Program-made: the position numbers and the translations under genes
Origin: an uncultured Gammaproteobacteria bacterium
GTDB lineage: Bacteria > Patescibacteriota > Patescibacteriia > UBA11705 > JABHMO01
Direction of reading: 5' to 3'
Length of the DNA stretch: 64,000 nt
Assembly: GCA_964590105.1 (NCBI GenBank)
Contig: CAZPYM010000002.1
Location: forward strand, 154,697 to 218,696
Shown here: piece after piece, positions 6,962-27,634 of the stretch
Position numbering within the stretch: the stretch's first letter is position 1
Layout of the letters: each line of letters starts with the position of its first letter
The notes under the pieces: model-generated
The model's database searches: none
What the model was told of the DNA's origin: nothing
The model's input: only the letters and a program-made list of their open reading frames with translations

Positions 6962-8326
6962 ATGCCGAGGAAGCAGCAGTTTGAAGTTGACGGCGTGAGG
7001 CACGCCACTATCAATGGTCATCGCTTTCATTTGCGGTGGACTGATCCGGGGAAAGATAATTTTCTCTGGATTGACGGCAAGCAGCCGCCATTGATACTGG
7101 ATCAGACAGCGGCAGATTTTGTCGCGCATTTGATTGACGCCATGTGGCTATTTCAGACCGGCGCGGGAGACAATTCTGCCCAAGTGATTAGACATGTTGT
7201 AGACAAAATGTATGACTGCTACGGGCGATCATCGATCATTCGAAAAAAGCGGGTCACAAGGGCCAGGATTGAAGCGGATTTCCAGCGGATTTTCGGCATG
7301 CTTATGGCGGTGGCCGACAGCGGTTGTCCGTATGAATCCGGGCTTGATTCCAAGGAGATCAATTATGGCGTCTGGGCGGCGCCGGCGCGCATGGATCTGG
7401 CAGTGACGTATCGATGCAATCTGCAGTGTAGCAAATGCTATCTTGGCGAGCGTAGCTCGCCGGATATGCCATTCGAATCATGGTTGGAAGTCTACAAAAG
7501 GCTTTGGGAAATCGGCATTTCACAGGTGGTGTTCACCGGAGGGGAGCCTTTGCTTCGTCCGGACATTGTGCAGTTGGTGTCCGAGGCAGACGAATTTGTC
7601 ACCGGGCTTATCACCAATGGAACAGAGCTCGCCCGGTTGGCACAGCCGTTGCGCGACGCCAGCCTGGATTATGTCCAGGTGACGATTGAATCTGCTTTCC
7701 CAACGGTTCACGATCTGATGACACAGACGCCCGGTTCATTGATGAAGACAATGGCCGGCATCAGGGCGGCGGTTGAGTGTGGATTACAGGTGGTGACCAA
7801 TACAACTCTGACAAAAGAGAATGCTGATGGTTTTTGCCGGCTTTTGCGCCAGTTAGAAGGACTCGGCGTGAAAAATGTCGCTTGCAACACGCTCATTTGC
7901 AGCGGACGCGGCACATATCATCGCATGCAGAATGGTCTTTCTGATGCAGAATTGCTCGCCGTAATCAAGCCGGCGCTGGCTGTGGCAAGAGACCTTGGTC
8001 AGAATCTGCAGTGGTATTCGCCGACCTGTTATAATCAGGGTGTGAATCCGATTGAGCTGGGCTTTGGCGTGAAGGCGTGTTCAGCCGCAGCTCACAACAT
8101 GATGGTTGGGCCGGATGGCGAAGTGTTTCCGTGCCAGTCATGGCCGAAATCGGTTGGAAACATCTTGCTGAATAGCTGGCCGGCAATCTGGGAACATCCC
8201 ACGTGCGTGGCTTTGCGCAATCACGAAATGGCGCCCGCGGCTTGCCGCGATTGCGAGCATTTGTCCGTCTGTGGCGGAGGATGCCCGCTCGACAAGGACG
8301 CGCGTCTCGGCGAGGTGAAGTCATGA
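6962..8326 (+). CDS. Radical SAM / SPASM-domain protein with ~130 aa N-terminal (RRE-like) extension. Putative peptide/protein-modifying maturase.
   Basis: CNLQCSKC (CX3CX2C, Cys152/156/159). C-terminal Cys cluster C-X2-C-X5-C-X3-C (CRDCEHLSVCGGGC) plus upstream CNTLICSG / CYNQG / CSAAAH, typical of the SPASM twitch. Stop overlaps the next start (ATGA). Confidence 0.85.
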   Translation: MPRKQQFEVDGVRHATINGHRFHLRWTDPGKDNFLWIDGKQPPLILDQTAADFVAHLIDAMWLFQTGAGDNSAQVIRHVVDKMYDCYGRSSIIRKKRVTRARIEADFQRIFGMLMAVADSGCPYESGLDSKEINYGVWAAPARMDLAVTYRCNLQCSKCYLGERSSPDMPFESWLEVYKRLWEIGISQVVFTGGEPLLRPDIVQLVSEADEFVTGLITNGTELARLAQPLRDASLDYVQVTIESAFPTVHDLMTQTPGSLMKTMAGIRAAVECGLQVVTNTTLTKENADGFCRLLRQLEGLGVKNVACNTLICSGRGTYHRMQNGLSDAELLAVIKPALAVARDLGQNLQWYSPTCYNQGVNPIELGFGVKACSAAAHNMMVGPDGEVFPCQSWPKSVGNILLNSWPAIWEHPTCVALRNHEMAPAACRDCEHLSVCGGGCPLDKDARLGEVKS

Positions 8327-13195: not shown

Positions 13196-13225
13196 CTTCC
13201 CGAACGCATTCGGGAGTTTTTTTTG
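13196..13225 (+). terminator. Intrinsic terminator cttCCCGAAcgcaTTCGGGagTTTTTTTT. Right-hand copy of the island boundary repeat.
   Basis: Stem-loop plus U-run. Near-identical to 6819..6845. Confidence 0.6.
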
Positions 13226-13260
13226 TTACGAATTACGAATCTGCTACGAATCTACGTATC
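13225..13260. repeat. TACGAAT heptamer array (gttacgaattacgaatctgctacgaatctacgtatc). Second copy lies upstream of nusA at 16842..16888.
   Basis: ~35-nt near-identical block at two loci 3.6 kb apart. Confidence 0.6.
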
Positions 13261-14196
13261 ACTATTAATAATAATACTTGCGGTTGAGTTCCATTTTTGA
13301 AGGATTTCCAGCCGCGTATCTTTGTCGTGGAATTTCAACACTTTGTCGTTGATAACAACGTTGGTGTTGTTTTGCTTTGCCAGTTCGCGCAAGTGACGAG
13401 GAAGAACTTTTAGCTGAAATTTTTTAGCCAGAGATTCAGCCCAAAAAAATAATTTGCAATTTAGAGCGCCTTCGGAAATTTTTTGAGTCAGTGGCCGCGC
13501 CTTGATCTGCCAGCGGGCATTTGTTTGCACGGGAAAATAATTTGGCAGATATTTTTTGGTCCAAATATTGGCCTGAAAAAAGTTGTTGATTAATTCCGGT
13601 CGGCCGCAAACCGGCACGAATTGGTTTAGCCAGTAAATAAAGTGTACGTCATTTTCATAAGCCAGCGACTGGAGATTTAAATTGTCTTCGGTAATGTAAA
13701 AGCTCAGACAGATTTTGTCTTTTTGTGATTTGACGGTCGGTCTTTGGCGGAGCAATTTCATGGCCAAAACGCAAAAAAGTCTGGCGGTCCAGATTTTATT
13801 TCTGGCGCAAATAATTGTCAGGTCGATGTCGCTGCCTTCGCGCGCGTTTTGATAAGCCAGATTATTGCAAATAAAAATTGCCCGAACATAGGGCAGTCGA
13901 TTGAGTAGCTGGATATATTTTTTTGCTTTTTTTATTTTCGCCTGGGCCAGTAAATATTTTTTCTTTCTTTCAAAAACAATATTGTCCTTGCGTTTTAAAA
14001 AATAAAATCCTTCGTTTGAGCCGAGGATTTTTTCATTAAGCAGATTATCCAGAGCGAAATTAACTTCATTTAGGGAATAATTTGTTTCCGGCTGCCAGAG
14101 ATTTTTCCATATTTCCCAGCCGGTCAGAGGAAAATCAAAAATATTAAAATACGAAATGGTTCTTAAGATTGTTTTTTCTAGGCTTCTCTCTTGCAT
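13252..14196 (-). CDS. Nucleotidyltransferase-fold hypothetical protein.
   Basis: 314 aa. GSDIDLTI motif typical of the pol-beta-like NTase fold. Confidence 0.45.
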   Translation of the reverse strand: MQERSLEKTILRTISYFNIFDFPLTGWEIWKNLWQPETNYSLNEVNFALDNLLNEKILGSNEGFYFLKRKDNIVFERKKKYLLAQAKIKKAKKYIQLLNRLPYVRAIFICNNLAYQNAREGSDIDLTIICARNKIWTARLFCVLAMKLLRQRPTVKSQKDKICLSFYITEDNLNLQSLAYENDVHFIYWLNQFVPVCGRPELINNFFQANIWTKKYLPNYFPVQTNARWQIKARPLTQKISEGALNCKLFFWAESLAKKFQLKVLPRHLRELAKQNNTNVVINDKVLKFHDKDTRLEILQKWNSTASIIINSDT

Positions 14197-16838: not shown

Positions 16839-16841
16839 ATT

Positions 16842-16888
16842 GTTACGAATTACTAATCAGCTACGAATCTACGAATGGCTATGAATGT
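16842..16888. repeat. TACGAAT heptamer array immediately upstream of the nusA start codon.
   Basis: gttacgaattactaatcagctacgaatctacgaatggctatgaatg. Ends 4 nt from the nusA ATG (minus strand). Confidence 0.6.
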
Positions 16889-17148
16889 TGATAGCGATTT
16901 TGTAAAATAGTAGGTGAATTTATAATTGGTGGTTTTAAAAAAAACACTAGTTTAATTATCATAAACTAGCTTACTATGAAAGTATAGCAGGCTAATTAAA
17001 TTTTGTCCATAATGAAAGGTCTTGTCAAGCGGATTTAATTGTGTTAAAGTAGTTCTAGTTTAATAAATTAAGGGTATTCTGCGTTACGACCATTAATTTT
17101 AGCGAACTTCTATTTTGCTAGAATTACAGAATATCAACTCATTTTCAT

Positions 17149-19214: not shown

Positions 19215-19311
19215 AAGGTAAAAGTTGAAATCCGAAAGTTGAAGGTTGAAAGATTGAAGTTGAGGGTCATGACTGTAGTAATTAAAAAAAGAAGATAAAA
19301 AAACATACAAA

Positions 19312-19342
19312 AACAACGCTCTCGCTCGGAGTGTTGTTTTTT
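19312..19342. terminator. Intrinsic terminator of the AACAAC...CGGAGTGTTGTT family (copy 1).
   Basis: aacaacgctctcgctcggagtgttgtttttt. Confidence 0.6.
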
Positions 19343-19650: not shown

Positions 19651-19658
19651 AACCAATC

Positions 19659-19692
19659 AAAACAACACCCGCGCACGGAGTGTTGTTTTTTT
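19659..19692. terminator. Intrinsic terminator of the AACAAC...CGGAGTGTTGTT family (copy 2).
   Basis: aacaacacccgcgcacggagtgttgttttttt. Confidence 0.6.
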
Positions 19693-19695
19693 GTT

Positions 19696-20892
19696 TTATA
19701 TCACCTGATTCTTGCGAAGAATTGATAAAATGATTATTCCGGACGCAAGAGTTGTAAACGCTAAAACTGTCAGAGCCTCGCCAAGTGTATAAATATCGGC
19801 AATCCAGCCAATGACCGGGATGATTATCGCATACAACAATCTGCCGATAAAACTTTCTGCGGATAAAATAGTCGCTCTTATACCAGAGGTTGTCAGTTGG
19901 TTTATATAATCCGTCACGACTGCGTTTTTGAATCCCCTGACAAATTGCTGAATAAAACAGAACGAAAAACTGAAAAGAAAAACAAAATTGCTCATCAAGA
20001 AGTAACTTCCCGCGACAAGAAATATCAACATGGCCAGAGAATACTTTTGGCCAAGTTTCGCCTCAATTCTGTGCGCGTACTTTGATGAAAAAGCGGCGAC
20101 GATCTGGAATCCCGCGAAGACAAAACCAAAGTAAGCAATATCTAATCCTGAAAACTTGAAATACGGCTGATATAGCCACAAAGCTGATTGGTTGAACGCA
20201 TAAATAATTCCGGAATAGATAATGATCCACCTCAATTTTTTGTTTTCCGTAAGCGTGACTTTTATTACTTTTAATAATTCCCTGGCGTAACCTCGGTCAA
20301 AAATCAGTTTATGTCTTTTGGGTTCCTGCATTGAAAAGGTTAATGGAATCATTAGGGCAAAAAACGGGATTGAAGCATAAAGCGTGTATCTTAAATCTAT
20401 TTTTGCAATAAAACCACCGAGAACGCTTGATAATGCCAAGGCAATCATTCCGTAAAAAAGCGCATTACCCCATATCTTTTTGTAATTTTTTTCTTGGCCG
20501 AGATCTTGCAGGGTATCATAAACAAAGGCGGAGGCTGTTCCCGAGGTAAAAGAAACAGTCAAGGCAAAAAATATTTCCGCAATTAGAAATTGGAAAAAGT
20601 TGTGCCCGAGACTGTAGATGGCGATAGCGATCAAACCGGTTGCCGCCGCGATAATTAGAGTTTTTTTTCTGCCATAAACGTCGGCGAAATAGCCCGTTGG
20701 AATTTCAAGAATTACCGCGCAAATTGCAAAAATTGATTGCAAAATCATTACTTCTGTCAGAGACAAGCCGTTTTCCTGCCAGAATAGAACCATTATGGGT
20801 ACAGAAAAAAACATTCCCGCTAGAACCTTGTGCAAGTAAAATTTCCAAATGTTATTTTGCAGTTTATTTTTCTTTGCTTCCGGGTTATTCAT
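19696..20892 (-). CDS. MFS transporter.
   Basis: 12-TM pattern with a typical MFS loop motif between TM2 and TM3. A start at the internal Met (MNNPEAKK) avoids overlap with the downstream gene. Confidence 0.75.
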   Translation of the reverse strand: MNNPEAKKNKLQNNIWKFYLHKVLAGMFFSVPIMVLFWQENGLSLTEVMILQSIFAICAVILEIPTGYFADVYGRKKTLIIAAATGLIAIAIYSLGHNFFQFLIAEIFFALTVSFTSGTASAFVYDTLQDLGQEKNYKKIWGNALFYGMIALALSSVLGGFIAKIDLRYTLYASIPFFALMIPLTFSMQEPKRHKLIFDRGYARELLKVIKVTLTENKKLRWIIIYSGIIYAFNQSALWLYQPYFKFSGLDIAYFGFVFAGFQIVAAFSSKYAHRIEAKLGQKYSLAMLIFLVAGSYFLMSNFVFLFSFSFCFIQQFVRGFKNAVVTDYINQLTTSGIRATILSAESFIGRLLYAIIIPVIGWIADIYTLGEALTVLAFTTLASGIIILSILRKNQVI

Positions 20893-21415
20893 AAAGTGCA
20901 ATTTCTTTTTTAATTTGCTCAGCAATAATTTCAGGATTGTCATGTGAAAAAACAGTTATATCGCCAAGCCCTTTGTAGCTGTGAAATCGTTGAGTGAATT
21001 TTATTTTTTCCTTGTCTTCCGCTAGGCCGAAGCCTCTTGAAAGTTGTCTTTTGATCACAATCCGGAGACTTTCATCAAGAGACTCAGATGGTAGGAGCAA
21101 GATTGAAAAACCTGACTCTTTTAAGGTTTGTCTATGTTTTGAGGTTAATTTGTCAAGACCCTCATGGACTAAAAATCCGGAGGATAGAGCGAAAACAAAA
21201 TTTTTATAATTTTCGCTTAGAACCTTGTAAAATAGTTGAGAATTCTCAACGCAATATTTTTCATAACCATTATTATTTATGAAGGTGCCGACATTTTCAA
21301 CGCGATTGCAAAATTCGGCATCCAGGTCAATAAAATTATAGCCCAGCAATTTCGCTAAAATTATGCCGCAGGTCGTTTTGCCGACTCCGCCGGGGCCGAT
21401 TAAGAATATTTTCAT
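20885..21415 (-). CDS. Shikimate-kinase-like P-loop NTPase.
   Basis: Start at the internal Met (MKIFLIGPGGVGKTTCGIILAKLLGYNFIDLD). Walker A and an AroK-like N-terminus. Substrate unknown. Confidence 0.55.
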   Translation of the reverse strand: MKIFLIGPGGVGKTTCGIILAKLLGYNFIDLDAEFCNRVENVGTFINNNGYEKYCVENSQLFYKVLSENYKNFVFALSSGFLVHEGLDKLTSKHRQTLKESGFSILLLPSESLDESLRIVIKRQLSRGFGLAEDKEKIKFTQRFHSYKGLGDITVFSHDNPEIIAEQIKKEIALYE

Positions 21416-21419
21416 AGAA

Positions 21420-21437
21420 AAATTACAAATTACAGAT
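21420..21437. repeat. TACAAAT/TACAGAT heptamer pair 5 nt upstream of the kinase start. 15 nt are identical to the rbfA leader.
   Basis: aaattacaaattacagat. Exact 15-mer aaattacaaattaca is also at 49199-49213. Confidence 0.55.
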
Positions 21438-21443
21438 CCCCTC

Positions 21444-21477
21444 AAAACAACACCCGCGCTCGGAGTGTTGTTTTTTG
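21444..21477. terminator. Intrinsic terminator of the AACAAC...CGGAGTGTTGTT family (copy 3).
   Basis: aacaacacccgcgctcggagtgttgtttttt. Confidence 0.6.
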
Positions 21478-21497: not shown

Positions 21498-22190
21498 CTA
21501 AGCCGTTACCTTTTTCATATAGGCCAACCAAAAATTTCTTTTGTAGCTTTGTCCTTTGAATCTGGTATAGCTGGTTTTTTTCAGTAGTTTGATAATTTTA
21601 AAATATTTTGAATAAAGATTAATAAAATCCTGCCCAATAAAAACTCTTTCAATTAAATGCATATCTTCATTAACGTAAGTATCAGGCTCCGGTCCGGGGT
21701 TAATTTTGAGTAATGCTTTGGCGTTTTTGTCGCCTTCTTTGCACAAAGCTTTCACAAAAAAATAGCCGTTTTCTTTTAATACTCTATGCGTCTCAGATAA
21801 ATATATATACCTCTCTTTTTCATTTAATGAATTGGAAGAGGTGACGTCGAGCGCCAGATCAAATGTTGCGTCTTCAAACGGATATTCTGATCCGATATTA
21901 TGAAGTTTATAATCGACTTTAATTTCCAGCTCTTTGGCTCGGGATATTGCAAGGCCAATTGCCGTCTGGGATATTTCCAGGCCGGCAACTTTGTTGCCCA
22001 GTTCTGCTAAATAATTGGCATTTCGGCCGGTGCCGCACCCCAGATCCAGTATTGCCAGGTTTTCCGGTTTAATGTTTTCCTGCTTTTTTAAGAATTTCAA
22101 AAAGCGCAGTACATCCTTTTGCGGATTGCCTTCTTTTGTGACCAATTGTGGTCTTTGATATTCGTTTTCCCAGGCAGCGGTTTGAGGCAT
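21498..22190 (-). CDS. Class I SAM-dependent methyltransferase.
   Basis: ILDLGCGTGRNANYL motif I. 230 aa. Confidence 0.8.
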   Translation of the reverse strand: MPQTAAWENEYQRPQLVTKEGNPQKDVLRFLKFLKKQENIKPENLAILDLGCGTGRNANYLAELGNKVAGLEISQTAIGLAISRAKELEIKVDYKLHNIGSEYPFEDATFDLALDVTSSNSLNEKERYIYLSETHRVLKENGYFFVKALCKEGDKNAKALLKINPGPEPDTYVNEDMHLIERVFIGQDFINLYSKYFKIIKLLKKTSYTRFKGQSYKRNFWLAYMKKVTA

Positions 22191-22203
22191 AAGTTATACG
22201 CTG
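22126..22203. repeat. Left copy of a 78-bp direct repeat (methyltransferase start codon plus first 25 codons).
   Basis: 75 of 78 nt identical to 24305..24382. Confidence 0.85.
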
Positions 22204-22224
22204 TTGCGTGTTGTTATAAAATAA

Positions 22225-22872
22225 TTAATTTGAAGCTTTGGCCGGGTTAACTTTTATTTCGGCAGAACCATTGCCTATTTTTTTGTAGCCTGCCGGAAAG
22301 GTATCTGTATCCAGTTCCATTCCGGTCACGCAATCAATCCCTAGCCCATAACATGAATGAGTCTTTTTCATCTCGCGTTCCAACAACTCCTGCCGGTTTC
22401 TTTCCGTATAGTGTGGCTCAATGATGGTGTCTTTAATAATTCCTAACCCCCTGCGAAGAGTACTCTTGCCCTGGCCACTTGTCGATCGAAAATGAGTAGC
22501 CAGTACCTTGCCCCCTGCCGACTCTCCAATAATATATTGGGCATTCCGGATTAACTTTACCAGTTGTGGATTTGATTGGATTTTTTTTAGTAGATTTGCG
22601 CTGTTGCTTCCACCGCTAATAAAAATTAGTGGTGATTGGGCCTTGGCAATATCTTCTGTGTTTTGAGCATTAAGGTAATCTGCGCCTTTCAGATGAATGT
22701 ACTTATTGAACCAATCTCCCCGCCATTCAATATCACTTGATTCTGTTCTCGCGAAGGGGATATGCAGAATTTGTTTTGCTTTTAACTGCAGCATCACTTC
22801 TTCAATAAGTTTGAGTAGCGGTTCCACCTGACCTCGATTTACTTCCGCTCCCCCAAAGAGAAAAATTTTCAT
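22225..22872 (-). CDS. Peptidase S51 (dipeptidase E / cyanophycinase-like) family protein.
   Basis: IGESAGG nucleophile elbow. Class-I glutamine-amidotransferase-like fold pattern. Confidence 0.6.
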   Translation of the reverse strand: MKIFLFGGAEVNRGQVEPLLKLIEEVMLQLKAKQILHIPFARTESSDIEWRGDWFNKYIHLKGADYLNAQNTEDIAKAQSPLIFISGGSNSANLLKKIQSNPQLVKLIRNAQYIIGESAGGKVLATHFRSTSGQGKSTLRRGLGIIKDTIIEPHYTERNRQELLEREMKKTHSCYGLGIDCVTGMELDTDTFPAGYKKIGNGSAEIKVNPAKASN

Positions 22873-22985
22873 GGTTTTTACTGATTATTATTATTATTGT
22901 TTTGTTACGACGCACAACTTGGTATTAGGCGAAAGTGAGCGGAACAGAGTGGAGCGAAAGCGTAGCGTCCCCTTGAGGAGCTCTT

Positions 22986-23552
22986 TCAAAATTCAGCGAT
23001 AATCCAAAAACCGCCCCTTTTTCTTTTTTGATGATATCCAATCTTCATTGATTCGAGAAGTTTATTGAGTTTTACAGCTCTGATTTTTGGTTTATCTATT
23101 TTAGGATCAACCAAAGTAATATCATCATTCTTTATTGATTGGATCAATGACAAATGACCATGACCTTGTCCGTATAAAATTCTATTGTTAATACAAACCA
23201 TTATATCATTACCTTTCTTCAAGTTATCCATAATAAATTCCTTCGAATTTTCAACTTTTTCAACAGGATAATATGTTTCTTTTAGTTTAATATTATTCTT
23301 CAAAAATAATTTATTTATTGAATATTTTTCTTTATGGGTTTGCGTTCCATATTCTTCGTCTGGATCATCTTTAACAATAGCTTTTGTGAATAAATGGGCA
23401 TTTTTTGAAGAAACAACTAAACCCAATTGATTGCCAATTTCTTCTTGTGAGCCATGATCAATTTTTCTTCTATCTAAAATCATGGTTAAGCATGCTGGAC
23501 AACAGCAATGAGGCAATTGAGTAATTGGTTTATAGGGAGGTTTCTGGTCCAT
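22986..23552 (-). CDS. Standalone C39-like (papain-fold, double-glycine-type) cysteine peptidase domain protein.
   Basis: ITQLPHCCCPACLTMIL matches the C39 Q-x4-C-G-x-ACLxMxL catalytic Cys region. GHGHLSLI ... DDITLVDP supplies His/Asp. Confidence 0.5.
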   Translation of the reverse strand: MDQKPPYKPITQLPHCCCPACLTMILDRRKIDHGSQEEIGNQLGLVVSSKNAHLFTKAIVKDDPDEEYGTQTHKEKYSINKLFLKNNIKLKETYYPVEKVENSKEFIMDNLKKGNDIMVCINNRILYGQGHGHLSLIQSIKNDDITLVDPKIDKPKIRAVKLNKLLESMKIGYHQKRKRGGFWIIAEF

Positions 23553-23710
23553 AGAATTGAATATATTAATGGAAAGTTATAAATTTTTTGATTCGTTTTC
23601 TTATTGTAATTCATAAAAAGAAAAGGTAAAAATTTGGGTGGAGTAAACGAGGAAACTTAACTAATTTACCTTGTATTAAAGTCTTTTTTCAATTTTTTTC
23701 GTCGCCGAGC

Positions 23711-23738
23711 TTGACATATTGTTGGAATCTGTTATACT
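23711..23738 (+). promoter_or_regulatory. Sigma70-type promoter TTGACA-16-TATACT.
   Basis: Consensus hexamers. SD AGGGAGGGTAAGATG at 23795. Confidence 0.5.
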
Positions 23739-23794
23739 AAAAAGTTAGCAATTGTGCTGACAACCTTGTTAACGTTGTAGCAAGGGAGGGTAAG

Positions 23795-24226
23795 ATGGCA
23801 AAAGTGTCAGTAGAACGACGCGTCGAGCAGGTTTACAACGGCAGACACTACAAGGGCTACGTAAAGGTCGCCGATAGCAAATTCGACTATGAGCTCGTGT
23901 TCGGAGTTCCGATCGACAAAATGAAGCCGGTCAAGGATGAAAACGAGGTTCGCCGTCTCTTCCAGATCACGGTGAAGCGCGGTAACGTGAACATCGAGCT
24001 TACGAAGGAGGAATACGGCTTCTTTTTCTCGATGGTCGTGGAGTTGGCGGTAAAATTCTACAACAACCCGCAAACCAGAGTGATGGGTATGCTGGTTCAG
24101 GACAGAGGTCCGATGGCTGCCTTTGGTGCTTCCTGTTCGATCTGCATGACGAATAGCGGGTTGTGCGATTTTCCGTCGGAGCTTTGCGAGATGCTGAGTG
24201 CACCGAAGTTTGGTTGTACGTTCTAA
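23795..24226 (+). CDS. Hypothetical 143 aa protein with C-terminal six-Cys segment (GASCSICMTNSGLCDFPSELCEMLSAPKFGCTF). High-GC cassette gene.
   Basis: Strong SD plus consensus promoter plus terminator. GC clearly above the backbone. Confidence 0.5.
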   Translation: MAKVSVERRVEQVYNGRHYKGYVKVADSKFDYELVFGVPIDKMKPVKDENEVRRLFQITVKRGNVNIELTKEEYGFFFSMVVELAVKFYNNPQTRVMGMLVQDRGPMAAFGASCSICMTNSGLCDFPSELCEMLSAPKFGCTF

Positions 24227-24249
24227 GCAAGGAAATACCTTGCGCCCGA

Positions 24250-24287
24250 GCCCCTTGCGAAACACGTTTTCGCTTGGGGCTTTTTTC
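24250..24287 (+). terminator. Intrinsic terminator (gccccttgcgaaacacgttttcgcttggggc plus T-run).
   Basis: Long GC stem followed by tttttt. Confidence 0.65.
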
Positions 24288-24304
24288 TTAAAAAAAGAAT
24301 TATT

Positions 24305-24382
24305 TAATTTTTTTCTTTTGCGGATTGCCTTCTTTTGTGACCAATTGGGGTCTTTGATATTCGTTTTCCCAGGCGGCGGTTT
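24305..24382. repeat. Right copy of the 78-bp direct repeat (truncated 5' end of a methyltransferase gene, minus strand).
   Basis: Encodes MPQTAAWENEYQRPQLVTKEGNPQK then runs into unrelated sequence. 3 mismatches versus 22126..22203. Confidence 0.85.
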
Positions 24383-24440
24383 GGGGCATATAAGAACATT
24401 GCAATAATTTTTTATTTTTACGGCGGCGTTTCTCTTTTCG

Positions 24441-25061
24441 CTAGTTACTCACAATTTTAAAACTATTTTCCTTGACTACTACAGCTTGATTGTCCGAAAT
24501 TTTAATTACCTTGTATTTATAGTTTTGACGGTTCTGCAGGTTTTTATCAATTTTATCTTTGAAATTTTTGTCATCATAATGGGGCAAGACAACAAAATCA
24601 ACTAGTGCCAGACCATCATAAGATTTTAATTCAGGAGCTTCTTCTTGATTATCAATGTCTTTTGCTAATTCGGTACTCGGTCCCGCCAGAAGTGTGCCGG
24701 CGCTCGAACCGATATATGTGCCCCCTTTTCCTACAAAGGAAGTTACTATTTCATCAAAACCTGATTTCCTGGTCTCTTGTAATAAATAAAAAGTATTGCC
24801 TCCTGCCACAAAAATAATATCAACACCGGTTATTTCTTTTGAAAGTTGATTCTTTGTTTTGCCTTCCAAGTTGACGTCAATGACTTTAAACCCCAAGTCA
24901 ATCAGTTTGTCTCGGTCTGCCGTTACGAACCAGTTGTCCTTCAGTACATTTCCGGCAGTTGGGATGAAAGCGACCGTTAATTTGGCAGGAGGACAATCAA
25001 GCGATTCTACAAGTTTATTCAATGTGTTTCTGGCAACGGAAGCAAGGAAAAGATTTATCAT
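24441..25061 (-). CDS. Peptidase S51 family protein (divergent paralogue of 22225..22872).
   Basis: Start at the internal Met (MINLF...). IGSSAGT nucleophile elbow. Confidence 0.6.
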   Translation of the reverse strand: MINLFLASVARNTLNKLVESLDCPPAKLTVAFIPTAGNVLKDNWFVTADRDKLIDLGFKVIDVNLEGKTKNQLSKEITGVDIIFVAGGNTFYLLQETRKSGFDEIVTSFVGKGGTYIGSSAGTLLAGPSTELAKDIDNQEEAPELKSYDGLALVDFVVLPHYDDKNFKDKIDKNLQNRQNYKYKVIKISDNQAVVVKENSFKIVSN

Positions 25062-25111
25062 AATGGTCGTACAATAGAGTATGAGATGTAAACGAATTTC
25101 GTCTAACGTTT

Positions 25112-25217
25112 CGGCATATACGATGTTGCACGGGTGTATAATAGCCGACAGGCTACACCCGTGCAATATGGGCGGAGGTTTGCGGAGGTACGGAGCAAAC
25201 CGTAGCCGTATATGCCG
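25112..25217 (-). ncRNA. Candidate structured RNA element (closing stem plus two internal hairpins) in the leader of the S51 peptidase gene.
   Basis: P1 cggcatatacg/cgtatatgccg encloses hairpin gcacgggtgta...tacacccgtgc and hairpin ggtttgc...gcaaacc. Confidence 0.3.
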
Positions 25218-25242
25218 TGTTATATGATGTGCCATTAAATTT

Positions 25243-26337
25243 TTATCTTCCTCTTATCGTTTCATTTATATTCCTTTTTTGCAAAAAACCCCAAACTTTC
25301 TCTGCATAATCCCTTTTTTGTTCAGGAGTAGCATTTTTAATGTATAAAATCCTGTTGCCGATATTTCCGTTTAAAACCATTGTAAAAAAAGCAACAAAAT
25401 CATCATGGGTTGGGTGAGTTTTTTGAATTTCACCGATTACTTTTTTATCATCTGCTGTTTGCATTTCTTCCAGTTCAAGAAGACCCTCAACCCTGTCATA
25501 AAAGCTTTCAAGGACTTTATTTTCCCCATATATTTCAGTTTCAAGCTGGTGTGTAGCTTCGGAGGCTTCTTGATCGACCGCGATGCCAGTCGTATCAAAC
25601 TCTTTGTTTCCGTTCAATGCCGCTGCTACATTGCCTAAATATTGACGGCCAACAGCTTCTTTTGCTGGCATTGCAACAAAGTGAGAAAAAGTTGTATTCA
25701 CACCGTCGGCAAAATCTGCCTCTCTTGGGGTATATTCTTTGAGGCTACATTCAGTGGATGTTTCTGTGCCTTGATATCCTTCTAATGCTGTCCTTGGGAA
25801 TGTAAAAAAGAGATTATTGTTAGCGTCAAAATATGCCAGTGTGTCAGGCGACTGTTCTATAACTAAAAAAGCATGACCGGGCGCAGAAACAGCTACATGA
25901 TCAATCCCGTGTTCTTGTAAGAAAGTAGAGGCTATTAAAATTCTACCAGCACATTCTAGTTTCCCTTGCCTCATTGACTTAATCAATACTCCGTCCTTTG
26001 GTACATTTGGATCAGTCTGCTCCTCGTCCGAATCTCTTTTTAGTACTTTGAATAATTCGTGTGGCAGATTTTGCTGGTCAATTCCTTCAAGCTTTTTCTC
26101 AATTTGTTGGTATCGAGGCAATGATTTTGTTGCTTTTTTTAATTTTTCATTAAAATTATCTAGGTTCTCAGTTGATTCAATTTCAAGAGTATCCAAAACT
26201 GTGCTTTCAGTTTGTTTTCTTTTCTCTGGTGAGATTTCTTTTTGTACAACAGGTTGCTCAGCTTTTGGAATATCGGCAATAGGATTTTTTATTTGCTGTT
26301 CTGCTGTATCGGGATTTTTTGCATCTTCAATACCCAT
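25243..26337 (-). CDS. Hypothetical protein. Possible transglutaminase/papain-like Cys-His core.
   Basis: 364 aa. LECAGRILIAS...HVAVSAPGHAFLV...D spacing is suggestive only. Confidence 0.4.
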   Translation of the reverse strand: MGIEDAKNPDTAEQQIKNPIADIPKAEQPVVQKEISPEKRKQTESTVLDTLEIESTENLDNFNEKLKKATKSLPRYQQIEKKLEGIDQQNLPHELFKVLKRDSDEEQTDPNVPKDGVLIKSMRQGKLECAGRILIASTFLQEHGIDHVAVSAPGHAFLVIEQSPDTLAYFDANNNLFFTFPRTALEGYQGTETSTECSLKEYTPREADFADGVNTTFSHFVAMPAKEAVGRQYLGNVAAALNGNKEFDTTGIAVDQEASEATHQLETEIYGENKVLESFYDRVEGLLELEEMQTADDKKVIGEIQKTHPTHDDFVAFFTMVLNGNIGNRILYIKNATPEQKRDYAEKVWGFLQKRNINETIRGR

Positions 26338-26545
26338 ATTGATTGATTAAATCTGATAATTATATCATTTTTTGCTAAATAGAGCCATAAAAATTTAATG
26401 GCATTTCATATAACTTCTTTTATGCGAACAGGGTGAGTTCTGCGCTAAAAAAACACGTGTCCTCCGAAGCCTTGGCGAAGGGGGAATAAATAATTTGGTT
26501 ATCTTTATTCCAATAGTACCTTATGAGATTGGTTTAGTAAAGGCA

Positions 26546-26593: not shown

Positions 26594-27634
26594 TTATTGA
26601 TAAGCAGCGTTTTCTTCTTTTCTCTTTTGCGTCACCGCCGTCCAGATTTCCTTTTTTATTTTATCCATAAGCTTTGGGTTTTGCCGCAGATAGAGCTTGG
26701 CGGTTTCTCGGCCAACGCCCAGTTTTTCTTCGCCGTAAGAATATGAATTGCCGGCCTTGTCAATAATATCGTATTTCAGTCCGGTATCAATAACATCGCC
26801 GGAAATTGAAATGCCTTCATTATACATGATGTCAAATTCGCAGGCCTGAAACGGAGCGGCGACTTTGTTTTTTACCACTTTTGCCTTGACGCGGTTGCCG
26901 ATGGTGACTTCGCCTTTTTTAATCTGCGCGGCCCGGCGAACTTCAATCCTGACAGAGCTATAAAATTTGAGTGCCATGCCGCCGGTGGTTGTTTCCGGAT
27001 TGCCGAAAAATACGCCGATCTTTTGTCTAGTCTGATTGATAAATATTACTGTTGTCTTGGTTTTGCCGACAATGGCGGCCAGTTTTCGGAGCGCCTGGCT
27101 CATTAATCTGGCTTGAAGCCCCATGTGGCGGTCGCCCATTTCGCCTTCAATTTCAGCCTTTGGCGTTAAGGCGGCGACTGAATCAATTACGATTATATCC
27201 ATAGCGTTCGAGCGGACCAAAGTTTCAACTATTTCGAGCGCCTGCTCGCCGGTGTCCGGCTGGGAAATAAACATTTGATTGATGTCAATGCCGATTTTTT
27301 TGGAATAATCAGGATCAAGCGCGTGTTCGGCGTCAATAAAAGCGGCCGTACCCCCAGCTTTTTGCACTTCAGCTACAATATGCTGGGAAAGGGTTGTTTT
27401 GCCGGACGATTCTGGCCCATAGATTTCAATAATTCTACCGCGCGGCACGCCGCCGACTCCGAGCGCAATATCAAGAGAGATACTGCCGGTGGGAATAGCT
27501 TCCACGTTCATAGCTTGGGCTTCCCCCAGTCTCATAATGGCGCCGTCCCCGAATTTTTCCCTTATTTGCATAATCGCGTCTTCGGTGGCCTTGACTTTTT
27601 GGGTCTGTTCGTTTTCAGGCTGATTTTTTGACAT
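26594..27634 (-). CDS. recA: Recombinase RecA.
   Basis: 346 aa. GPESSGKTT Walker A and highly conserved RecA core. Confidence 0.97.

Follow-up and report, generated by a model that had tools for sequence, protein, structure and literature searches.

The locus described here lies in a 64,000-nt stretch (hereafter, the window) of contig CAZPYM010000002.1, which derives from an uncultured, ultra-small bacterium of the Patescibacteria, or Candidate Phyla Radiation (CPR). At its centre is a methyltransferase gene whose 5' end occurs twice, once at the head of the intact gene and once as a stranded stub, the two copies enclosing 2.1 kb of insert-specific DNA (Table 1). Three genes lie in the insert, namely a peptidase of family S51 (S51a), a C39_2-like cysteine peptidase and, on the opposite strand, a gene here called CysR; a second S51 peptidase gene, S51b, stands just outside the right copy. 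The locus is a real and fairly ordinary insertion-duplication scar, the product of a type of event that is already known, and the case is confirmatory rather than surprising.

Table 1. Features of the methyltransferase locus and its surroundings, in window coordinates
Feature	Position	Strand	Remarks
Terminator-hairpin repeat, copy B	19657..19691	-	35 nt; directly after the stop codon of the major facilitator superfamily (MFS) gene
Terminator-hairpin repeat, copy A	21442..21476	-	35 nt; directly after the methyltransferase stop codon
Methyltransferase	21498..22190	-	230 aa, intact; class I, S-adenosylmethionine (SAM)-dependent; Pfam Methyltransf_25/11/31
Left repeat copy	22116..22191	-	1 nt upstream plus 5' end of the intact methyltransferase gene
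Insert-specific DNA	22192..24314		2123 bp; not in the related strain; no terminal inverted repeats
S51a	22225..22872	-	215 aa; peptidase S51 / type-1 glutamine-amidotransferase-like; Pfam PF03575, E=3e-14
C39_2-like cysteine peptidase	22986..23552	-	188 aa; Pfam PF13529 (Peptidase_C39_2), E=1e-5, 26.5 bits vs cutoff 24
CysR module	23711..24288	+	self-contained: promoter, 143-aa open reading frame (ORF), terminator hairpin
Right repeat copy	24315..24390	-	stranded original methyltransferase 5' end; stub ORF 24300..24389, 29 codons
S51b	24441..25064	-	second S51 peptidase, PepE-like; Pfam E=2e-39
recA	26594..27634		2.2 kb from the locus

The direct repeat is 76 nt long, ungapped and 73/76 identical, with 2199 nt from start to start, and when the copies are aligned together with their flanks the similarity ends sharply on either side. 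Read on the minus strand, each copy consists of a T, the ATG and codons 2-25 of the methyltransferase; the stub ORF translates as MPQTAAWENEYQRPQLVTKEGNPQK, followed by KKIK and a stop codon, and the joint at 24314/24315 is located in an A/T run. With up to three mismatches allowed, just two copies of the repeat occur within the window, and it was recovered in none of 100 dinucleotide-preserving shuffles. A degenerate 57-nt pattern (codons 7-25), scanned against JGI metagenome contigs, added one further locus, the empty site of contig L038 described below; a generic multi-copy repeat, which the initial annotation had itself put forward as the counter-explanation, is thereby ruled out. That annotation, made from the sequence alone, had seen the repeat and its three mismatches, the start codon and first 25 codons in both copies, and a stranded gene stub in the right one, all of which agree with the flanked alignment, the window scan and the minus-strand translation. 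Both of its intervals have to be moved by 10 nt, the two in opposite directions, and its 75/78 identity becomes 73/76, over a length of 76 rather than 78 nt.

The three mismatches all fall on third codon positions and are synonymous (CCT/CCC, GCT/GCC and CCA/CCC, left copy/stub), and each of them is an AT-to-GC change in the stub relative to the left copy. Changes in this direction run counter to the usual mutational bias. The synonymous share of the possible substitutions across these 25 codons is 19-22%; under neutral decay of the stub, three out of three synonymous differences would be expected with P = 0.007-0.011.

The gene content first proposed for the interval between the copies (an S51 peptidase, a C39-like peptidase and a high-GC ORF) is borne out by Pfam and by the ORF list, as is the placing of a highly diverged second S51 just outside the right copy. 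S51a yields weak NCBIfam matches to cyanophycinase and PepE, and its homologues, common in Patescibacteria, are at most 67% identical and unlinked to C39 or methyltransferase genes. S51a and S51b are only 22% identical (over 97 aa) and are therefore not recent duplicates; set against the 96% identity of the repeat, the same figure rules out a tandem duplication of a unit made of an S51 gene and the methyltransferase 5' end. The methyltransferase belongs to a family conserved across Patescibacteria (1205 homologues), its nearest homologues beyond the species cluster being at most 80% identical and all in unrelated contexts. In another lineage (L012-L014), a radical SAM/SPASM gene is found two genes upstream of the closest methyltransferase homologue; a radical SAM protein with a SPASM domain is also encoded in the window, at 6962..8326, 13 kb from the locus.

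The arrangement is not an artefact of one assembly. A 12.3-kb ENA contig (L001) carries it entirely, with both junctions, at 100% identity; the left junction is present in seven ENA/JGI contigs (L002-L008) and the right junction in two (L010 and L011), likewise at 100% identity.

A relative provides the corresponding empty site. The 90%-identity methyltransferase cluster has one other member, P0121, encoded on contig L025 (ENA ERZ27247124 k141_491214, 1846 nt), which is ~90% identical to the window; L038 (JGI Ga0180732_1054662), from an independent assembly, is 100% identical to L025. In both contigs S51b leads through the same intergenic spacer into a full-length methyltransferase, and the three insert genes are all missing. 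This is the uninterrupted gene order which the initial annotation had proposed to look for, and it supports that annotation's reading of the locus. Positions 1-358 of L025 align to window 24670-24315 (S51b 3' end, spacer and right repeat copy, 89%), and positions 283-1037 to window 22191-21442 (left copy and remaining methyltransferase, 90%), both 76-nt copies aligning to the single copy of L025. The spacer that precedes the L025 methyltransferase can be aligned to the one before the stub but not to the one before the intact gene. This identifies the stub as the original 5' end, still in place, and the copy heading the working gene as one brought in or produced by the insertion. Judged from these alignments, the inserted DNA comprises the 2123 bp and one 76-nt copy, and S51b is the ancestral upstream neighbour of the methyltransferase.

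On its other side, the methyltransferase adjoins a second repeat-bounded insertion. The two 35-nt terminator-hairpin copies (34/35 identical, period 1785) bound a shikimate-kinase-like and MFS gene pair at 19696..21445; L025 and L038 have a single hairpin, and their methyltransferase leads directly to the EF-P side, without shikimate kinase and MFS. The occurrence of two adjacent blocks with duplications of different lengths (76 and 35 nt) and no recombinase points to general short-homology recombination rather than to a fixed stagger or a fixed site. Together with an apparently mobile 1.3-kb unit beyond S51b (H364, see below), the second insertion upholds the early description of the region as a recently rearranged accessory locus. 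A third, more diverged hairpin copy lies at 19294-19342, after EF-P. Another direct repeat of the window, 54 nt long and 83% identical (13223-13276 / 16840-16893), is composed of TACGAAT-like heptamers and flanks a block of core genes (a 314-aa ORF and the YidC-like and NusA genes); it is perhaps a motif of regulatory or promoter regions, and not the scar of an insertion.

Within the insert, CysR forms an expression unit complete in itself. Its near-consensus promoter (TTGACA-16-TATACT with TG, 23711-23738) is one of the top two sigma-70-like sites over 7.4 kb of scanned sequence, its 143-aa ORF spans 23795..24226, and its terminator hairpin (24248-24282, fold z=-5.0) is followed by a U-run to 24288. 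The protein has no match in Pfam, NCBIfam, PHROGs or PADLOC. Its family numbers 62 proteins of ~155 aa, from Patescibacteria only wherever the source is named, and is conserved over the full length including the C-terminus, which ends LCEMLSAPKFGC. The gene had at first been described as high in GC and Cys-rich: the former stands (GC 0.51, and 0.68 at third codon positions, GC3), the latter does not hold as a family trait, with two conserved cysteines in the family against five in the window copy, which is among the shortest members. The homologues are solitary and sit in unrelated neighbourhoods, never beside S51, C39 or methyltransferase genes (12 genomes), and in 7 of 9 genomes CysR is clearly GC-richer than the host locus (e.g. 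0.55 vs 0.375). In one of the homologous loci (L033, among L026-L037), two CysR copies stand in tandem beside a recombinase-like ORF.

The AlphaFold (AF2) model of CysR, with a predicted local distance difference test (pLDDT) of 82 and a predicted template-modelling score of 0.74, shows a compact sheet-plus-helix fold whose C-terminal strand and helix are packed at high confidence (pLDDT >90); no significant structural match was found in PDB or BFVD. Conservation over the full length and a globular fold that is packed in the model argue against a peptide precursor processed by the C39-like peptidase. A cluster for a ribosomally synthesised and post-translationally modified peptide or a bacteriocin, made of a C39 peptidase and a Cys-rich precursor, was considered and is unsupported on these same grounds, CysR moreover never being linked to C39.

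As to mobility, no integrase or transposase domain was found in the three insert genes (Pfam, NCBIfam, PHROGs), and no recombinase gene over the 12.3 kb of L001, nor in any of 28 ORFs that were scanned at window positions 3.4-62 kb, a region of ordinary core chromosome (NusA, YidC, S6, SSB, EF-P, RecA, FtsK, ClpP, RNase Y, S1, GyrA and a Mur ligase). Terminal inverted repeats are lacking at the insert ends (best inverted match 10, shuffles 8.5 +/- 1.5) and tRNA genes in the whole window. With regard to structured RNA, there was no Rfam match, either at the gathering threshold or at E<=1, and the GC-richer spacer between S51a and the C39-like gene folds no better than shuffles (z=0.3). PADLOC, searched for defence systems, was without hits for the insert genes. 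A transposon or insertion sequence is ruled out by the lack of a transposase and of terminal inverted repeats and by a duplication of 76 bp, the target duplications of known transposases measuring 2-15 bp. An island bearing its own integrase was likewise rejected, no such gene having been found in the insert, the 12 kb around it or the 28 window ORFs.

The three insert genes are unlinked in every other genome examined, and no donor arrangement (an S51a-methyltransferase or a CysR-C39-S51a linkage) was found among the contexts of the closest methyltransferase, S51a and CysR homologues. In composition the insert is a mosaic. The idea of three genes forming one conserved cassette fails on their lack of linkage and on their GC3, which is 0.40 in S51a, 0.22 in the C39-like gene (a strongly AT-rich gene, GC 0.30) and 0.68 in CysR, the methyltransferase and recA having 0.39 and 0.51, respectively.

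With slightly better than even confidence, the scar is attributed to a single-crossover (Campbell-type), or an equivalent one-ended, homology-facilitated integration by the host RecA system, of DNA that came probably from a related strain. The ancestral state would have been the S51b-methyltransferase gene pair. The incoming DNA would have been 2123 bp of foreign or strain-variable sequence, composed of the C39-like/S51a pair and the divergent, self-contained CysR, and its sole homology to the chromosome would have resided in the first 76 bp of the methyltransferase. RecA-type host recombination could have acted on a circularised fragment with one crossover or through a homology anchor at one end, with the same product in either case, and no element-encoded recombinase would have been involved. 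The crossover would have duplicated the homologous segment: the S51b-side copy would be the old 5' end, now a 29-codon stub running into the CysR terminator, and the S51a-side copy would have restored an intact methyltransferase downstream of the C39-like/S51a genes. Of these steps we infer the intermediate (circular or one-ended), the dependence on RecA, the entry by natural competence and the rewiring of methyltransferase transcription; the presence of recA shows capacity only.

Of the two origins that the initial annotation had offered, Campbell-type integration of a circular element and target duplication, the evidence leans towards homology-based integration, because all three mismatches are synonymous and because neither transposase nor integrase nor terminal inverted repeat is present. 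All-synonymous mismatches suggest two functional alleles that would have diverged in two strains and then met by recombination; a repeat that stops precisely at the start codon would be expected from a donor carrying another gene (S51a) upstream of a near-identical methyltransferase allele. There are precedents for the separate steps. Experiments in E. coli aimed at homology-facilitated illegitimate recombination (HFIR) yielded mostly circular single crossovers, with 109-950-bp duplications of the homologous locus (PMC3240628), and one-ended integration has been proposed for orphaned gene fragments in type VI secretion system (T6SS) and Rhs arrays (PMC5361080). In Patescibacteria, genes for homologous recombination have been kept and natural competence has been proposed (PMC12455944).

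Several points weigh against this account. At the three mismatch sites the outgroup L025 has T, T and G, which equals the left copy at two of them; two changes would accordingly map to the stub lineage, as neutral decay also predicts. The synonymous argument rests on three sites and on a 10%-diverged outgroup, and L025/L038, the only related lineage with the empty site, is represented by short contigs (1.3-1.8 kb). No donor with S51a directly upstream of a near-identical methyltransferase was found among the homologue contexts examined. For efficient exchange by RecA, 76 and 35 bp are close to the minimum length, and the first circle or fragment with exactly methyltransferase nt 1-76 still requires one illegitimate join.

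Some of these points speak for an insertion in situ, whereby the 5' part of the methyltransferase gene would have suffered a break, staggered or two-ended, at which a foreign fragment was captured by end-joining or by template switching during replication; fill-in would have duplicated 76 bp, and the stub would then have drifted. The final structure would be identical, the outgroup puts two of the three changes on the stub, and no donor allele was found in the homologue contexts examined. Such an origin is nonetheless regarded as unlikely, given that every one of the three differences is both synonymous (P about 0.01 for a neutral stub) and AT-to-GC, that 76 bp is far above what transposases duplicate at their targets and neither a transposase nor terminal inverted repeats accompany it, and that the neighbouring block duplicates 35 nt, hence no fixed stagger.

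Reversed polarity is less probable still. Here the filled site would be the older one, and L025/L038 would have lost both the 2.1-kb and the shikimate-kinase and MFS segments via precise recombination between direct repeats. Deletion of this kind is common and would yield exactly the structure of L025, and one study (PMC5426353) documents RecA-independent deletion between short direct repeats; yet the stub still demands an earlier insertion or duplication, which alters the timing and not the origin of the stub, and the copies differ by 4% from each other, as against ~10% divergence between window and relative.

Little credence is given to a non-autonomous island, for which the 76 nt would be attL and attR, an integrase encoded at another genomic site or on a helper element would have acted in trans and the island would have carried a replacement methyltransferase 5' end. 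Flanking direct repeats that restore the target gene do typify integrative islands, and tyrosine integrases adjoin other cassettes in related genomes (e.g. L017 and L020). The repeats resemble att direct repeats, yet they are 96% identical and coincide with a coding 5' end, and taken alone they are indistinguishable from recombination homology. Against the island stand the lack of an integrase among the insert genes, on L001 (12.3 kb) and in the scanned window ORFs, the imperfect identity of the copies, a repeat found at no other locus of the window, and an insert that is a mosaic of unlinked genes. Lastly, an assembly artefact or a chimera of two strains joined at the shared 76-mer can hardly be credited: several contigs do terminate in or near the insert (L003, L006-L008, L010, L011), but both junctions are 100% identical in independent assemblies from different samples and pipelines, and three differences between the copies would prevent a collapse of the k-mer graph.

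Returning to the single-crossover integration, its consequences would extend to transcription. The methyltransferase was presumably co-transcribed with S51b across a 53-nt spacer; S51b transcripts would now pass through the stub into the CysR terminator region, and the methyltransferase, now 34 nt downstream of S51a, presumably shares the transcript of the C39-like/S51a pair, which would start in the divergent spacer 23553-23794. The filled and the empty site form a clean before/after pair for gene gain in an uncultured CPR bacterium with a reduced genome, where a few dozen homologous bases and host recombination may suffice to add genes and rewire an operon. They offer a concrete CPR example of gene-content variation without the classical machinery of mobile elements.

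A bolder generalisation, which we consider doubtful, is that the lineage may exchange small promoter-to-terminator cassettes without a dedicated recombinase, gene-boundary sequences (the 76-nt gene start, the 35-nt hairpin) serving as homology handles. On that view, at least four acquisitions would be stacked in the 7-kb stretch from EF-P to recA, namely shikimate kinase with MFS, the C39-like/S51a pair, CysR and H364, and, if this were true, CysR and H364 would be undescribed kinds of self-contained mobile genes. The H364 unit, with its structured module, could prove the more original lead, and the locus, of modest interest in itself, gains somewhat as part of a cassette stack between EF-P and recA.

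The H364 unit (~1.3 kb, window ~25095-26414) is named here after its 364-aa ORF (25243..26337, minus strand), for which no family hit was obtained. The ORF is bracketed by 28-nt inverted repeats (25219-25246 and 26387-26414), and further inverted repeats are nested within the ends of the ORF. Copies in L017, L019 and L020 share 96% identity with the unit, the copy in L017 is 99.9% identical to that in L018 or L019, and each of the copies (L017-L024) is in a different genomic neighbourhood. The unit has the appearance of a mobile gene of a kind yet to be described. The protein, which is not recognisable as a transposase, belongs to a small family (51 representative clusters) with invariant Cys129, His155 and Asp171; its confident model (pLDDT 86) gives weak structural matches only (E 0.02-0.3), of which the top-ranked and several others are to proteins of transglutaminase fold (menin, arylamine N-acetyltransferase, PNGase and Rad4).

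After the H364 ORF comes a ~115-nt hairpin module (window 25110-25220, minus strand; folding z=-6.2 and -5.5), also without an Rfam match at the gathering threshold or at E<=1. It recurs in L017 (9854-9911 and 11156-11225), L018 (2170-2221), L019 (3654-3705 and 6413-6464) and L021 (11156-11208). Across five variants, 16 of 25 predicted pairs are compensatory, while CCCATATT, ATTATAC, AACATC and AACGTT are fixed; the fixed motifs can also be read as TTGCnn-17-TATTAT, which is promoter-like and faces the downstream gene (S51b in the window). In public gene calls S51b is a 264-aa product (24441..25235) whose first 57 codons overlap the module. The Pfam S51 match on the 207-aa form (ATG at 25064) starts at residue 27 (profile position 29), which fits the shorter form, and the N-terminal extension may be an annotation artefact stemming from the neighbouring H364 unit.

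Among known systems, islands and prophages with att repeats share with this locus the direct repeats around a cargo, the replacement end that keeps the target intact and the empty site in a relative. They differ in that here there is no integrase, the site is a 5' coding end instead of a tRNA or a 3' end, the repeats are 96% and not 100% identical, and the cargo consists of three unlinked small genes. The orphan-stub arrays of Rhs, contact-dependent inhibition and T6SS loci are alike in that successive acquisitions displace gene ends, leaving stubs that share a segment with the active gene (PMC5361080); theirs are displaced 3' toxin tips with immunity genes, whereas the stub described here is the 5' end of a housekeeping-type methyltransferase, and no toxin/immunity logic was detected at the insert (PADLOC, insert genes).

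A further likeness may be drawn with HFIR during natural transformation, summarised in PMC5361080 for Acinetobacter, S. pneumoniae and P. stutzeri. The features in common are foreign DNA with one-sided homology, host recombination together with DNA uptake, and orphaned gene fragments; in contrast, the recipient DNA that lies between anchor and illegitimate joint is usually lost in classical HFIR, whereas here 76 bp are duplicated. Along the same line, Campbell insertion-duplication differs in scale and setting: the homology is 76 bp here (35 bp in the neighbouring block) versus 109-950 bp in E. coli (PMC3240628), and the case at hand would be a natural event in an uncultured member of the Patescibacteria, with a putative circle in place of a plasmid construct. 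In both, direct copies of one chromosomal segment flank the insert, the target is split into a stub and a restored copy, and the host can dispense with any recombinase of the element.

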